IMG/VR virus record: IMGVR_UViG_3300005805_000056
Span: 1-64,000 of that record
Reading direction: 5' to 3' (one strand)
DNA: 64,000 bases
From: a virus
Under the pieces are notes generated by a model. That model did no database searches and was not told the DNA's origin. It saw nothing but the letters and a program-made list of their open reading frames with translations. Shown piece after piece: positions 52,842 to 57,512 of the stretch (the stretch's first letter is position 1; each line of letters starts with the position of its first letter). The translations under genes and the position numbers were made by a program.

Positions 52842-53285
52842 TTAGTGGATGTTCAGCAACTTGAACATCTCAGTGACTTGTTGAACAGTGGCTGGATGGC
52901 TCAACTTGTGTTCGATCGGCTGATCAACACCAAAGATTCCAACGGTCAACTTGTCTCCACTCGCCGTCAGTGTAGACAATGCATTCGGCCAGATAAATGT
53001 CTTCTGGCTTGAAGACTCAATACATAGAATGGCTGTGTATGCGTCCTTAGTCGTCTCCAGGGCGATTTGTTCACCAACCCTTACGATGTTATAGCGGCTG
53101 CGAATTGACTTCTCAAACTTAGACTGCTCTTCAGCAGTAATGTCTTCGAGTTCAAGGTCATGTTGAGATGAGAAGACCTCCATGCAGTTAGGACTCGTGA
53201 CGACCCTCTTAAGGTCAGATGAGTTAACTGCCACAGTGTATTCTGACTGGGCACTCTCTAAGATAATGAAAGCTGGCTTCTTCAT
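52842..53285 (-). CDS. Hypothetical protein
   Basis: 147-aa ORF; start uncertain. Confidence 0.55.
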   Translation of the reverse strand: MKKPAFIILESAQSEYTVAVNSSDLKRVVTSPNCMEVFSSQHDLELEDITAEEQSKFEKSIRSRYNIVRVGEQIALETTKDAYTAILCIESSSQKTFIWPNALSTLTASGDKLTVGIFGVDQPIEHKLSHPATVQQVTEMFKLLNIH

Positions 53286-53607
53286 AGTAGTTGTGGATGA
53301 CTGTTAGTTTGTTGTGATGACCAACATCAATAGGTCTAGCAGCGCAGTAGTCTTTGAACTTCTGGTGCAGGTAGTCTTTGGCAGTGTCATTCTTGGGCAA
53401 TTTCTTCTTATATCGACTGATGTACTCAAGAATTACACAGCGTCCATAGACAATTTGGCTTGAGACAATTCCAACAAACCAGATGGCTGGCAGTACTGAG
53501 ACAAACCAGACACCTTTGATAAGAAGGAATGCACTTACAAATGACAGTGGACCATAGACTACTTGGCCAATTTTGTTGATCAGCCTGAGTACTGAGATTA
53601 CTTTCCT
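53224..53607 (-). CDS. Start-less membrane-protein reading frame (possible -1 frameshift extension of 53598..54101)
   Basis: Open frame RKVISVLRLINKIGQVVYGPLSFVSAFLLIKGVWFVSVLPAIWFVGIVSSQIVYGRC...IHCGS*; no ATG/GTG/TTG upstream of the hydrophobic segments. Confidence 0.5.
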   Translation of the reverse strand, partial: RKVISVLRLINKIGQVVYGPLSFVSAFLLIKGVWFVSVLPAIWFVGIVSSQIVYGRCVILEYISRYKKKLPKNDTAKDYLHQKFKDYCAARPIDVGHHNKLTVIHNYYEEASFHYLRECPVRIHCGS

Positions 53608-54101
53608 AGTTCGATGACCGTACAGTTTTTCTTCAAGGTTTCGACGGAGAGAGGTGAGTTGTCGATGGTCGAGCCGTCTTTCAGGTGCAACGTCACTGTC
53701 TTCCCGTTGAACTCGGCAATCGAGATCGCACGCAGGTTCACTCCGCTCAACGTGAATGCTGGGGTGACCAGACGTCGCTCCACCTTTTGGGTTGGACCAG
53801 CCTTGCTCGTCTGGGTCTGAGGGACCGGTGGTAGACCCTCGCTCTTATCAATCCAAGAGTGGGCCTTCTCAGTCACAATTGGCTTTTCACCCATCAGCTT
53901 GGCAAAAAGCGGAGGGAGGTAACCGTGGTTCTTGGCCACCTTAAGCAAGGTGGCCTCAATGCCACTGGAATTGGGTGAACAGAGCTTCTGAGAAGCAAGT
54001 TCAGCCACGACAGCCGACTTAGTCAGCTTGACACTCAAAGCTTTTTCCACCTTGTTAAGGGTAGAAACTGCTTGGTCTTTGTTTAGATCACTTAGTTTCA
54101 T
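53598..54101 (-). CDS. Basic hypothetical protein
   Basis: 167 aa; GGA + ATG start; TTTACA element ~35 nt upstream. Confidence 0.65.
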   Translation of the reverse strand: MKLSDLNKDQAVSTLNKVEKALSVKLTKSAVVAELASQKLCSPNSSGIEATLLKVAKNHGYLPPLFAKLMGEKPIVTEKAHSWIDKSEGLPPVPQTQTSKAGPTQKVERRLVTPAFTLSGVNLRAISIAEFNGKTVTLHLKDGSTIDNSPLSVETLKKNCTVIELGK

Positions 54102-54333
54102 TGGTTCCTTTTATTACACCTGTGCTATCCTGTAAACAAGTTTTTCTCCCCATGGTGACGTTTGACGTCGCCTTTACATCTTTATTTGTGAACTCCCAGA
54201 TCTCTCCTGAGCTGTCCAGGATCACTGTGAAGAGCTTCTCAATCTCACTGCCGTAGTCTGTCACAAGCCAGACTCGGCCACGACCTTTCGGTGTTTCAAC
54301 TTGAAGTGATTGTTGTACCTCTAGTATTGTCAT
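54088..54333 (-). CDS. Small hypothetical protein
   Basis: 81 aa, TPKGRG...DYG...GEIW; coupled to the carbamoyltransferase stop. Confidence 0.6.
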   Translation of the reverse strand: MTILEVQQSLQVETPKGRGRVWLVTDYGSEIEKLFTVILDSSGEIWEFTNKDVKATSNVTMGRKTCLQDSTGVIKGTNETK

Positions 54334-56066
54334 TGAAAGTTTCCAATGACAAGAATAGGAGCGGTCATTTGGCCATTTGAAGCCTCAACCTCTTTCAGGT
54401 TAAAGGCCATATCCTCAATGGCATCTTTAGCTGAGTAAACGATAGGAACACCATGAACATTCAGAGATGTATTGATCAACGCTGGATGTTCCGGATAGAG
54501 ACTTCTGAGGATATTCGAGATAGGCTGAATGTTGTTTGACTCAATCAGCTGAGGTCTCCCTGAGTATCCATACTTGTTGCTGAACTTTGGATAGGGGTGC
54601 ATCACACCCCTGAATCGCTCAACGTCCACAGTGGGGTGGTAGTCCAGCGTAAGGATCATGTAGTCTAGAGATCCAGCTACTCGACTGATGTCGCTGTGGT
54701 TGAAGAAAGCATGGGCATGTTGCTTCAACATCACTGGAGCCATGGGCATAACGGTGTCACGGCCATTCAGTGAATTGATAGTCGCCACATTGTCATTAAA
54801 TGGCAATGAAAGAGTTGTCGTATTGCACAAGGCTCTTGGTCCAAATTCCATCGAACCTGTGACTGTATTGACAATCTTATTTTGCTTCAGCTGAGATACA
54901 ACGAAATCAATATAGCTCTGCTTGTTGTTGAAGTAGAAGTGTCCAGGCCTGAACTCAGTTCCATTAGCACAGATAATGCCAGGAACACGAAGATCTCTGT
55001 GGCCCCACAGGAGGCTGTCCAGACCCATCACAGATCCCTCATTGTATCTCATCAAGCCAATGGCTGCACCTTGATCACCAGCAAGTGGCGTGGCACAGAA
55101 CTCACCAGGAATCTTAGATAGAATGTGGTTGTTCAGCTTGACATTGTAGTGAAGTCCTCCAGTGACAATGATGTTGTCAATTGAGAAGTCGTCGATGATG
55201 TTCGTATAGTAGTTTTCGATGATGCACTGAACGAAGTGGCCAATGATCTTACGTAGATCAGTCTTGCCAAATGCTTCCTTATTCTTGCCAGTGATCTTCT
55301 CAATCACTTCATCAAATCTAGCCCACAGCTTATTCTTTACGCTGATCAAGCGTTCTACACTGATATAGCTTGAGTTGGAGCTTGGATCAGAAGTACGTTT
55401 TTGGAATTCATCAGCCCATTTGTGGGCCTCTGTCTGAAGATTCTTGATCTCTGAGTTGGTCAGCACTTCATCAACCCAGGTCTCATATCCTAAGAATTTA
55501 TACTCATCCTGGTTTTCTTTCATGCCACAATATGAGGTGGCATACTGGTAAAGCAAGCCTAGAGAGTTTTCATAGCCATACACGCGATGGATCAGAGACA
55601 TTGTGTCTGCTGCTGCATTCCACTTGTAGATGGAGAAGACTTCTTCTTTGTTTCCAAAGCCATCAGCAACACAGATATGAATGGGGTCTAGTGCTGTGGA
55701 GTGAGCCTCATAGAAAGCTCTAGCAGCCCAAGCATGAGCATCGTGATGCGTAAACTGTGGGTTAAGAGTAACGAGTTTTAGCTTGTGAGTGCTGCAAAGT
55801 TCCTCCACAAAATGTGGGTTCCAGTGCTTGTCATTGAACCCATTCTTGTGGAAATCAAAGTCATCAAACCAGTGTGATACATAGAGATACTGGGAACCCA
55901 GGACGTTGTTCTGGTGATTCTTAAGACACTCCTCGATTGAGAGCTGAGGAAACTGAGATGAGCTCTTGATTCGATTAAGACGTTCCTCTTCATATCCAGC
56001 CACAATACGAAATTCATCCGTAGTGATAGCTGACGAGTTGTGTCCAAGCGTAAGTAGTAAGTTCAT
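54330..56066 (-). CDS. Carbamoyltransferase, NodU/CmcH family (candidate 5hmC carbamoyltransferase)
   Basis: GHNSSA, EEERLNRIK, HHDAHA, DGFG, SLGLLY, EYKFLG, GGLHYNVKLN, GDQGAAIG, EFGPRAL, NTSLNVHGVPIV. Confidence 0.93.
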   Translation of the reverse strand: MNLLLTLGHNSSAITTDEFRIVAGYEEERLNRIKSSSQFPQLSIEECLKNHQNNVLGSQYLYVSHWFDDFDFHKNGFNDKHWNPHFVEELCSTHKLKLVTLNPQFTHHDAHAWAARAFYEAHSTALDPIHICVADGFGNKEEVFSIYKWNAAADTMSLIHRVYGYENSLGLLYQYATSYCGMKENQDEYKFLGYETWVDEVLTNSEIKNLQTEAHKWADEFQKRTSDPSSNSSYISVERLISVKNKLWARFDEVIEKITGKNKEAFGKTDLRKIIGHFVQCIIENYYTNIIDDFSIDNIIVTGGLHYNVKLNNHILSKIPGEFCATPLAGDQGAAIGLMRYNEGSVMGLDSLLWGHRDLRVPGIICANGTEFRPGHFYFNNKQSYIDFVVSQLKQNKIVNTVTGSMEFGPRALCNTTTLSLPFNDNVATINSLNGRDTVMPMAPVMLKQHAHAFFNHSDISRVAGSLDYMILTLDYHPTVDVERFRGVMHPYPKFSNKYGYSGRPQLIESNNIQPISNILRSLYPEHPALINTSLNVHGVPIVYSAKDAIEDMAFNLKEVEASNGQMTAPILVIGNFQ

Positions 56067-56887
56067 GACTTAAAGAATTTCAAATCGTGGTACAGGTGGG
56101 TGCTTAGTGCAAAGGGACTTTCAAATGTGAATTCATCGTCAAAGAAGTGTCTTAGTTGTAGCATGTCGCCTAACTCATTTGGGTGGAATGTGGGCCACTC
56201 AATGAGCGTGGCATGCTCATAGGTAAGATTCTTGTATTCAATGTGGAGTGAACCCACATTGTGGAAATAAGTACCCACATCCAATCCTAAAAATGTGGCC
56301 ATCATCTCCTGCAGCATTGTGAAAAATACCACATCTGTTCTAAACCCAAAATGAAGTTCATTTGACCTCATTGTAGTGATTAGATTCAATCGGTTATTAC
56401 GAATCAGAAACTGCAATGAGGTTGTACAGATGTGGTCACTTGTTCCAGACATGGCAACCTCACGTCTGTTGAACATGATGATGGCTCTTCGTGAGCTTGG
56501 GTCTTTTCTAAGAAGATTCAGACAGTGTTGAAACTGTCTCTCCACCCAAACGTATTGACCATAGTTTGAGTTGACATCACCCTCCTGTGCTCTCTCCCAC
56601 ATCTGTGGGAAATACTGCTTCAACTCAGTGTTTTGCTTGCCCCAAGCGTACCACGCCCATTGAAGGGCCATATATGGCACAAAAGTAATTGGATCACTTC
56701 TAAGGGCTACAACCCTCTCTAGAGGATTATCGATCTCAATGCAGACATTGATGAACTCATGCCAATCTCCACTAATGGCATGGTGGGATGGGTTATAGTT
56801 GTCGCTTATTGGAGATACGTTGGCCTGATCAATCTTCCTGACTAATGTTGAGTAGGCTTCAGGTACATTCGTGGCGTGGATAATCAT
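56063..56887 (-). CDS. Thymidylate synthase-fold dCMP hydroxymethylase-like enzyme (T4 gp42-like, divergent)
   Basis: NSNYG, SRRAII, DHICTTSLQFLIR, MRSNE, FGFRTD (Asp = cytosine specificity position), NVGSLH. Confidence 0.85.
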   Translation of the reverse strand: MIIHATNVPEAYSTLVRKIDQANVSPISDNYNPSHHAISGDWHEFINVCIEIDNPLERVVALRSDPITFVPYMALQWAWYAWGKQNTELKQYFPQMWERAQEGDVNSNYGQYVWVERQFQHCLNLLRKDPSSRRAIIMFNRREVAMSGTSDHICTTSLQFLIRNNRLNLITTMRSNELHFGFRTDVVFFTMLQEMMATFLGLDVGTYFHNVGSLHIEYKNLTYEHATLIEWPTFHPNELGDMLQLRHFFDDEFTFESPFALSTHLYHDLKFFKS

Positions 56888-57480
56888 GCGATTTCTGACA
56901 GTGCTTCTTCACAGGCACTGAGTATCTGGTCTTCTTCCTTGCGCACGTCTACCTTAGTCAACTTGGACAAACCTGTAAACAACCCAATGTTCAAAGTTTC
57001 AATGAGCTGGTGCTCAATGGTCTGGGTCACCATCAAGTCGTTGGGTCTCATTGGGTCTTTGACTGTGATGGGCAAAGGCTGCATCATGAAGACAATGTCA
57101 TAACGCTTCTTTGCTTTGGCCGTCTCTGTAATGGTCTTGACAAAGTTGACGTAGTCAATCTTCTGGGCATCTGTTAGAGCCTTGATGTCAATGTAGAACG
57201 TCGTGTAAAACAAAGAGTCTGCCAGACTTCTGTCTACAAGGATCAGCTTGCCACTACCAGAGTTTGCTTCATCCTCCATCTTGATCTTCTCCATGACCAC
57301 CTTCTGCTGAAGCTTAAAGTAGTTCTGGGCTGAGTTTCTAACAACGTCAATGGAGGTGATCTTGTCTCTGATGCACTCACCCACGATGTGGACCTTTGAG
57401 CCAAAGCGGTCCTTGATCTTGTGCATGAGTGTTGTCTTTCCAGCATTACAAGGACCTGAAAAGGCGAAAGTGACGTTCAT
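56884..57480 (-). CDS. P-loop nucleotide kinase (NadR/AAA_28-like; candidate modified-dCMP kinase)
   Basis: SGPCNAGKTTL, ILVDRSLAD, YDIVF, DPMR. Confidence 0.75.
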   Translation of the reverse strand: MNVTFAFSGPCNAGKTTLMHKIKDRFGSKVHIVGECIRDKITSIDVVRNSAQNYFKLQQKVVMEKIKMEDEANSGSGKLILVDRSLADSLFYTTFYIDIKALTDAQKIDYVNFVKTITETAKAKKRYDIVFMMQPLPITVKDPMRPNDLMVTQTIEHQLIETLNIGLFTGLSKLTKVDVRKEEDQILSACEEALSEIA

Positions 57481-57488
57481 ACTTCTCA

Positions 57489-57512
57489 AGAACATGAACC
57501 GATGCGTGTTCT
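57489..57512. promoter_or_regulatory. Divergent pair of GTTCT motifs
   Basis: AGAAC 57489-57493 is 13 nt from ATG 57480 (-); GTTCT 57508-57512 is 12 nt from ATG 57520 (+). Confidence 0.6.

Follow-up and report, generated by a model that had tools for sequence, protein, structure and literature searches.

A carbamoyltransferase-linked branch of phage dCMP-hydroxymethylase-like proteins without the canonical folate-activating glutamate

The closest described systems associate a thymidylate synthase (TS) homologue of phages with further enzymes of cytosine modification. The carbamoyltransferase studied by Yang et al. (2021, eLife 10:e70021) converts 5-hydroxymethylcytosine (5hmC) to 5-carbamoyloxymethylcytosine in DNA, in 5-hydroxymethyl-deoxycytidine triphosphate (5hmdCTP) and in RNA, and needs 5hmC as acceptor; it was the only enzyme assayed, and positions 147 and 177 were the only TS positions examined. 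Lee et al. (2026, NAR gkag646) described flavin-dependent 5-hydroxy-deoxycytidine monophosphate (5-hydroxy-dCMP) synthases (RB69 gp48, DLP3 gp80 and HY126 AfhB, PDB 9IQU), for which Asn169 is diagnostic, and found that pairs of a TS homologue and a deoxynucleoside monophosphate (dNMP) kinase are needed for the incorporation of 5-hydroxymethyl-deoxycytidine (5hm-dC) and 5-hydroxy-deoxycytidine (5ho-dC). Here we analyzed a three-gene cassette in a stretch of 64,000 nucleotides (the window), which is part of the IMG/VR virus record IMGVR_UViG_3300005805_000056 (93.6 kb, estimated to be 41% complete). Its central gene encodes a TS-fold, dCMP-hydroxymethylase-like protein belonging to a conserved, undescribed branch, whose signature is found in no characterised enzyme.

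The residues concerned have assigned roles in this family, numbered below after Escherichia coli ThyA (Eco) or T4 gp42, the T4 dCMP hydroxymethylase (dCH). Glu58 (T4 Glu60) is held to protonate N10 of methylenetetrahydrofolate (CH2-THF) through a water. According to the T4 dCH ternary-complex and MilA papers, Asp169 (T4 Asp171) contacts the pterin, while T4 His216 and Tyr218 bind the sugar 3'-OH, Tyr218 also packing on the pterin. The T4 dCH study defined a hydroxymethylation signature made of an acid (Asp or Glu) at Cys minus 3, in T4 Asp145, which activates the hydrating water (the D145N mutant is inactive), and of the Ser94/Tyr96 pair, which holds the water that abstracts the C5 proton. Mutagenesis of MilA assigned its ribose preference to Ala176 and Lys133, the double mutant to Ser and Arg reversing it.

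The 274-residue protein matched PF00303 (1.3e-15, 57.7 bits for a cut-off of 24.3). Its best PDB sequence matches were MilA, a CMP hydroxymethylase (1.5e-21), and T4 gp42 (1.2e-20), true thymidylate synthases scoring far lower. The AlphaFold2 model (predicted local distance difference test score, pLDDT, of 91.9) had MilA and then T4 dCH as top Foldseek matches, with a probability of 1.00 to MilA, T4 dCH and many TS structures (3e-16 and a template modelling score of about 0.73 for MilA); HY126 AfhB structures were also among the fold matches. The core of the TS superfamily was present, Cys154, Tyr109, Arg174, Ser175, Arg133 and Arg134 corresponding to Eco Cys146, Tyr94, Arg166, Ser167, Arg126' and Arg127', of which the last four bind the 5'-phosphate. 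Assignment as a canonical dTMP synthase was rejected, as ThyA needs Asn177, Leu143 and His147 where this protein has Asp185, Asp151 and Thr155. The gene and its diagnostic codons are located as follows (window positions).

56063..56887, minus strand: TS-fold, dCMP-hydroxymethylase-like gene, 274 amino acids (aa), of the clade without Glu58 (PF00303, PDB, AlphaFold2 and Foldseek)
56660..56662, minus strand: codon CAA of Gln76 (LQWAWY), equivalent to Eco Glu58, T4 Glu60 and MilA Glu68, the acid activating CH2-THF
56561..56569, minus strand: Ser107-Asn108-Tyr109, the Ser-x-Tyr pair (T4 Ser94/Tyr96) of the hydroxymethylation signature
56426..56437, minus strand: Asp151-His152-Ile153-Cys154, with the water-activating Asp (Cys minus 3) and a clade-specific His at Eco position 144
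56357..56359, minus strand: codon GAA of Glu177 (RSNE), equivalent to Eco Asp169 and T4 Asp171, the pterin contact
56333..56335, minus strand: Asp185, the cytosine-specifying residue, equivalent to Eco Asn177 and T4 Asp179
56237..56239, minus strand: codon GAA of Glu217 (SLHIE), equivalent to Eco Tyr209 and T4 Tyr218, which contacts the sugar 3'-OH and the pterin

A first-pass annotation of the window, made from the sequence alone, had pointed out three altered conserved residues next to a retained catalytic Cys and cytosine-specifying Asp. All of these were recovered (Gln76, Glu177 and Glu217 for the former, Cys154 and Asp185 for the latter) by HMMER pairwise and MAFFT alignments with E. coli ThyA, T4 gp42, the SPO1-type dUMP hydroxymethylase and more than 200 homologues, and the roles it had given, of Glu and Asp at the folate and of the His-x-Tyr pair at the 3'-OH, agree with the T4 dCH ternary-complex and MilA papers. 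Site frequencies were compared between 168 canonical cytosine-type homologues (with Glu58) and 56 members of the clade of this protein. Position 58 was Glu in 100% of the canonical homologues, and Gln (95%) or Leu (5%) in the clade. Position 169 was always Asp in the former, and Glu (70%) or Asp (30%) in the latter. Position 209, Tyr in 100% of the canonical homologues, was variable in a Tyr-less sub-clade (K/A/E/Q/N/S/L/R, Lys being the commonest). Since each of the three residues is invariant among 168 homologues, their joint departure lies far beyond noise. Within the His-x-Tyr pair, His215 was kept and Glu217 occupied the Tyr position; a slip of one residue, with Tyr218 in the role of Tyr209, was ruled out, as the Tyr218 that follows Glu217 was not conserved in relatives.

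A pseudogene or an assembly error was likewise rejected as the cause of the substitutions. The identical protein represents 24 member sequences from 12 contigs, the same Gln/Glu/Glu combination (Q/E/E) was retained in relatives at 98% and 91% identity, and the ratio of nonsynonymous to synonymous substitution rates (dN/dS) against relatives was 0.11-0.21. The TS-like gene is thus under purifying selection. The combination was found in none of the characterised enzymes compared (T4 gp42, MilA, the SPO1-type dUMP hydroxymethylase and RB69 gp48), so that no characterised 5hmdCMP-forming homologue among them shares the changes, which the first-pass annotation had named as a finding that would refute its proposal.

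Outside these three positions, the active site was retained. Cys154 (Eco Cys146) was kept, and Cys146, Tyr94, Arg166, Ser167, Arg126, His207 and Asp177 were found in 100% of both the canonical and the clade sets. The hydroxymethylation signature was also complete, Asp151, Ser107 and Tyr109 (including the equivalents of T4 Asp145 and Ser94) each reaching 100% in the clade. In the folate site, Tyr72, Trp97 and Phe180 were kept (T4 Tyr56, Trp82 and Phe174) together with the counterpart of T4 Arg177, and T4 Asp171 was replaced by Glu177; T4 Tyr56 and Trp82, which stack on the p-aminobenzoic acid (PABA) moiety, were present in 100% of the clade compared with 69% and 66% of the canonical homologues. 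Ser175 and Arg133 (Eco Ser167 and Arg126) were the deoxy forms of the sugar determinants, as in 100% of the clade. As read from the alignments, the machinery predicted for dCMP binding, folate binding, C5-C bond formation and methylene hydration is intact, and the predicted losses are the acid thought to open CH2-THF and two contacts to the pterin and the sugar.

In a maximum-likelihood tree, the proteins formed a clade in which position 58 was never Glu (support of 99 in the SH-aLRT, a Shimodaira-Hasegawa-like approximate likelihood ratio test). One half of the clade kept Asp169 and Tyr209, and the other had Glu169, Tyr209 being lost within it; the order of changes read from this topology is a loss of Glu58 (to Gln or Leu), then Asp169 to Glu, then the loss of Tyr209. 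About 30 clusters (at 50% identity) of Glu58-less proteins were found among 1.84 billion representative proteins. Two more small Glu58-less lineages came from the same search, one with Gln58 and Glu144 and the other with Met58 and Lys144, and a tree of 110 rows needed three events of Glu58 loss. No cultured-phage protein displayed the signature except gp27 of Bacteroides phage BF486P2, a divergent Leu58 form, and the locus had no megablast match among the genomes of cultured phages; the group is known only from metagenomes.

The sister group consisted of canonical enzymes linked to carbamoyltransferases, from Xanthomonas phage Xp15, Acinetobacter phage Effie and the locus L114 (the latter also with a kinase), and the carbamoyltransferase tree mirrored the tree of the TS-like proteins. 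The clade is therefore an in-place descendant of an ordinary hydroxymethylase of the pathway, in a cassette that diverged as a unit. Within this unit, the TS-like gene diverged faster than its carbamoyltransferase (70% and 81% identity, respectively, to the locus L057).

Other forms of the family were encountered along the way. The metagenome contigs L078 and L071 represented a separate lineage, in which the carbamoyltransferase gene precedes the TS-like gene; one member had Gln58 and its 45%-identical relative Glu58, both with Glu144, which makes them a natural pair for asking what the loss of Glu58 costs. A 616-aa protein (P0241) displayed a TET-associated glycosyltransferase domain fused to a canonical hydroxymethylase, and P0128, P0133 and many others were TS-like proteins of about 500 aa, the 250 C-terminal residues of which matched no Pfam family.

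The TS-like gene is the second of three minus-strand genes with overlapping stop and start codons, in the order kinase, TS-like gene, carbamoyltransferase. Its neighbours are listed below.

56884..57495, minus strand: P-loop kinase, 203 aa, first gene of the cassette (AAA_28, 2.9e-14; weak deoxynucleoside kinase (dNK) match; phrog_2107, 'thymidylate kinase')
54330..56066, minus strand: O-carbamoyltransferase of the NodU/TobZ family, 578 aa (PF02543 and PF16861; phrog_1601, 2.3e-63)
53598..54333, minus strand: two small open reading frames (ORFs; 81 and 167 aa) 3' of the carbamoyltransferase, with no family match and a position kept in closer relatives

Both overlaps measured 4 bases, between the kinase stop and the TS-like gene start and between the TS-like gene stop and the carbamoyltransferase start. 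In related loci, too, a kinase was conserved upstream of the TS-like gene. The carbamoyltransferase had PDB matches to NovN, GdmN and TobZ and was homologous to the assayed 5hmC carbamoyltransferase. With a further ORF of 147 aa, the small ORFs after the carbamoyltransferase numbered three (81, 167 and 147 aa; window 52842-54333, minus strand; no family match); the 147-aa ORF kept its position in relatives as far as the genome G001, and the three may belong to the cassette. On the other side, a gap of 6 bases (window 57496-57501) separated the kinase start on the minus strand from a divergent 279-aa gene on the plus strand with a weak baseplate-hub match. The kinase could instead start at another in-frame ATG, five codons further downstream, and the cassette showed no convincing sigma-70-like promoter.

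The same record encoded, outside the window, a canonical thymidylate synthase (G000:C1:83622-84593, minus strand; 345 bits to PF00303; Asn177, Leu143 and His147), so that dTMP synthesis in this phage follows the ordinary folate route, beside the variant enzyme. No ribonucleotide reductase, dCMP deaminase or MazG-like gene was found in the record, and the nucleotide-metabolism module probably sits in its missing 59%. No second hydroxymethylase was found in this 41%-complete record either; as those other genes are lacking too, its absence says nothing either way.

The clade was tightly linked to carbamoyltransferases. All 16 evaluable Glu58-less proteins of IMG/VR and metagenome loci abutted a carbamoyltransferase gene with overlapping frames, and the order was mostly kinase, TS-like gene, carbamoyltransferase. 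By comparison, 10 of the 50 evaluable Glu58 proteins had a carbamoyltransferase nearby, nearly all of them separated from it by 0.6-1.9 kb (Fisher test of linkage, p = 6e-9, a value obtained without correction for shared descent and driven mainly by one clade). Around the cassette, synteny with the window was seen in G001, the group's only complete genome (230 kb, terminal repeats present).

Taken together, the protein is probably a folate-dependent dCMP 5-hydroxymethylase that works without the canonical cofactor-activating Glu. Since the Asp-x-x-Cys motif and the Ser-x-Tyr pair were kept in 100% of the clade, a 5-hydroxymethyl group remains its most likely product, and 5-carbamoyloxymethyl-deoxycytidine (5cmdC) would most likely be the final base. 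The TS-like enzyme would then perform the first, nucleotide-level step of the cassette by converting dCMP to 5hm-dCMP, which the cognate kinase would phosphorylate, in parallel with the pairs of TS homologue and dNMP kinase on which incorporation of 5hm-dC and 5ho-dC depends. The carbamoyltransferase would act on the 5-hydroxymethyl group, so that cytosine would be replaced by 5hmC and then by 5-carbamoyloxymethylcytosine.

On this reading, the proton relay would have been re-routed after the loss of Glu58. The candidate acid is the His at Eco position 144 (His152, Cys minus 2), and Lys or Glu at 144 would be the candidates in the other Glu58-less lineages. His144 occurred in 88% of the clade versus 1% of the canonical homologues; counting His, Lys and Glu together, position 144 was protonatable in about 88% of the Glu58-less proteins versus 6.5% of the canonical ones, and this held in each of the three lineages. 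The nearest Glu58 relatives of two lineages were already protonatable at this position (Lys in L114, Glu in L071), which makes a protonatable residue 144 look like a pre-condition for the loss of Glu58 rather than a coupled change. With only 2-3 events available, independent contrasts between Glu58 loss and a protonatable position 144 could not reach significance. His152 may thus compensate for the missing Glu. As Glu169 preceded the loss of Tyr209, the longer carboxylate may have taken over a contact to the pterin or to the sugar 3'-OH; by re-anchoring one of them, Glu169 would make Tyr209 dispensable.

Several observations weigh against an ordinary hydroxymethylation by this protein. Glu58/Glu60 was described in the T4 dCH ternary-complex paper as conserved in all members of the TS, CMP hydroxymethylase (CH) and dCH groups and as needed for cofactor activation. 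Some Glu58-less proteins displayed Leu or Met at position 58, which allows no hydrogen bonding. In both TS and T4 dCH, replacing this Glu by Gln severely impairs the enzyme (a literature search for kinetics of Glu58/Glu60 mutants gave nothing usable). No characterised enzyme belongs to the clade or is the TS-like partner of any carbamoyltransferase, and Yang et al. (2021, eLife 10:e70021) demonstrated the formation of 5cmdC in vitro but not its presence in native phage DNA. Where the context was known, all three losses of Glu58 had occurred in genes abutting a carbamoyltransferase and never in TS-like genes without one, which is unexplained if the job of the enzyme is unchanged. In addition, G001 harbored three TS-family genes, namely ThyA, a canonical Glu58/Asp169/Tyr209/Asp177 enzyme and the Gln58 enzyme of the cassette (Gln/Glu/Arg at the three positions, Q/E/R), and BF486P2 encoded a canonical gp32 besides the Leu58 gp27 of its carbamoyltransferase cassette.

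L136:1968-2798, plus strand (G001:C1, at about 188 kb): canonical hydroxymethylase of G001, adjoining a PF12224 amidoligase and the large subunit of ribonucleotide reductase, a neighbourhood that hints at a further modification pathway
L004:2539-5815, plus strand: cassette of BF486P2, with the carbamoyltransferase, a 217-aa ORF and the TS-like gp27

The additional, canonical hydroxymethylase in G001 and in the Bacteroides phages fits a neofunctionalised paralogue with another job, an explanation that is possible but rather doubtful. Enzymes without Glu58 would no longer hydroxymethylate dCMP with CH2-THF; a canonical hydroxymethylase encoded elsewhere would supply 5hm-dCMP, and the Cys146/C6-addition chemistry and the folate pocket would serve another step of the carbamoyltransferase pathway, for example by acting on 5hm-dCMP or 5-carbamoyloxymethyl-dCMP (5cm-dCMP) via an exocyclic methylene, or by trapping the methylene with a non-water nucleophile, so that the final base would be undescribed. 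Leu or Met at position 58 excludes proton transfer by the side chain there. However, conservation remained at 100% for the residues of water activation and C5-proton abstraction, which would be unexpected if dCMP hydroxymethylation had been abandoned, and canonical enzymes occupied the same slot in sister cassettes. Redundant nucleotide enzymes are also frequent in jumbo phages, and the support from complete genomes amounts to two cases, of which BF486P2 gp27, on a long branch and without Trp80 and Gly173, may be a different one; the record of the window, without ribonucleotide reductase, dCMP deaminase and MazG-like genes, gives no evidence either way. In its broadest form, this explanation, which we consider unlikely, would place the Glu58-less branch next to the folate hydroxymethylases and the flavin hydroxylases as a third class of chemistry among cytosine-type TS homologues; it would imply another Cys-dependent reaction at C5 in a folate pocket, such as a substitution at the 5-methylene of 5hm-dCMP or 5cm-dCMP, and an undescribed cytosine base in these jumbo phages. 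A binding or scaffold subunit, crippled in catalysis, that binds dCMP or 5hm-dCMP and folate with little turnover and either channels the nucleotide to the kinase and carbamoyltransferase or regulates these, would account for the lost residue regarded as catalytic, for the relaxed and variable position 209 and for a divergence faster than that of the carbamoyltransferase; the stop/start overlaps with both neighbours also suggest co-translation and possibly a complex. Such a role is nonetheless improbable, as the strict conservation of Cys146, Tyr94, Ser92 (T4 Ser94) and Asp143 across members of about 35% identity, with dN/dS of 0.1-0.2, is hard to reconcile with a mere binder.

The first-pass annotation had gone further and proposed a different cofactor, product or sugar, and hence a final base possibly undescribed. 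A signature without precedent stood from this proposal; each of the alternatives it named was contradicted by a retained determinant, and 5cmdC is the likeliest base. Another cofactor, with 5-hydroxy-dCMP as product and 5-carbamoyloxy-cytosine as final base, would make the protein a flavin-dependent synthase of the RB69 gp48/HY126 AfhB type. Position 169 is indeed altered, and the switch to flavin chemistry is marked by changes at this site; RB69 gp48, too, has lost Tyr209 (it has Phe), and HY126 AfhB was among the fold matches. The diagnostic residue is nevertheless Asn169 and not the Glu found here, RB69 gp48 retains Glu58 and has lost Trp80, Gly173 and Phe174, all three kept in this protein, the PABA-stacking Tyr56 and Trp82 are at 100% in the clade, MilA and T4 dCH were closer than AfhB by both sequence and fold, and the clade did not lie near RB69 gp48 in the tree; this reading is very improbable. 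Hardly any likelihood is left either for a change of sugar, in which the loss of Tyr209 would denote a CMP hydroxymethylase like MilA feeding RNA or a nucleoside metabolite. MilA ranked first by both sequence and fold, the Tyr that binds the 3'-OH is gone, and 5hmC in RNA and 5hmCTP are further substrates of the published carbamoyltransferase; yet the ribo determinants Ala176/Lys133 are absent, with Ser175/Arg133 in this protein and the deoxy forms throughout the clade, and MilA itself keeps the His-x-Tyr pair.

Throughout the TS/hydroxymethylase family, Glu58/Glu60 has been regarded as an invariant catalytic residue, the acid that opens CH2-THF. If the cofactor is activated in another way in this clade, the variant would be useful for understanding the TS mechanism and for engineering; if the chemistry has changed, it would parallel the Asp169-to-Asn branch, in which flavin-dependent hydroxylases were recently recognised. 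Either way, the signature (no Glu58, His/Lys/Glu at 144, with or without Glu169, and an abutting carbamoyltransferase) sorts metagenomic homologues now annotated as 'thymidylate synthase' and flags phages in which to look for 5cmdC or a relative of it. Hypermodifications of phage DNA are relevant to how phages escape restriction and CRISPR, and are of value as tools in epigenetic sequencing.

Compared with known systems, the protein shares with T4 gp42 (PDB 1B5E, 6A9A) the TS fold, the catalytic Cys, Asp177, the Asp at Cys minus 3 and the Ser-x-Tyr pair, as well as Asn168, Thr147, His207, Ser167, Arg126, Tyr56, Trp82, Phe174, Arg177 and a short C-terminus. It differs by Glu60 to Gln, Asp171 to Glu, Tyr218 to Glu and Phe146 to His, at about 24% identity, and its partner is a carbamoyltransferase while T4 gp42 is associated with glucosyltransferases. 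MilA (PDB 5B6D, 5JNH), the best sequence and fold match, has Asp177 and the Asp at Cys minus 3 in common with it, but displays Glu68, His-x-Tyr and Ala176/Lys133 where this protein has Gln, His-x-Glu and Ser/Arg. The flavin synthases are alike in being Asp177 TS homologues altered at Eco 169, with a cognate dNMP kinase and, for RB69 gp48, a lost Tyr209; they have Asn169 and Glu58 and are without Trp80, Gly173 and Phe174, whereas Glu169, Gln58 and the folate-site residues are found here. BF486P2 gp27, the only Glu58-less protein found in a cultured phage, shares the absence of Glu58 (Leu58) and a protonatable Lys144, and differs by its long branch, by Trp80 to Tyr and Gly173 to Leu, and by keeping Asp169 and Tyr209; the canonical gp32 lies 2 kb downstream, and both proteins are annotated as deoxycytidylate 5-hydroxymethyltransferase.

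The pairing of Yang et al. is the nearest match at the level of the cassette; there too, a single phage contig carries both a TS-like gene and a carbamoyltransferase of the NodU/TobZ type. All compared conserved motifs were shared between the two carbamoyltransferases, and the 68 N-terminal residues compared were about 39% identical. The contig of the assayed enzyme was not found with this 68-residue query, the best matches being 54% identical among the loci and 50% in IMG/VR; the latter genome (G007) harbored a canonical TS-like enzyme. In Xp15-like phages with the TS/carbamoyltransferase pairing, the enzyme is also the canonical Glu58 form, and lies 0.6-1.9 kb from the carbamoyltransferase. 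Judged by its genes, a cytosine-type TS homologue and a NodU/TobZ-type carbamoyltransferase, the cassette is assigned to the published 5cmdC type; this cassette type is known, and the variant of the TS homologue that it carries is new.

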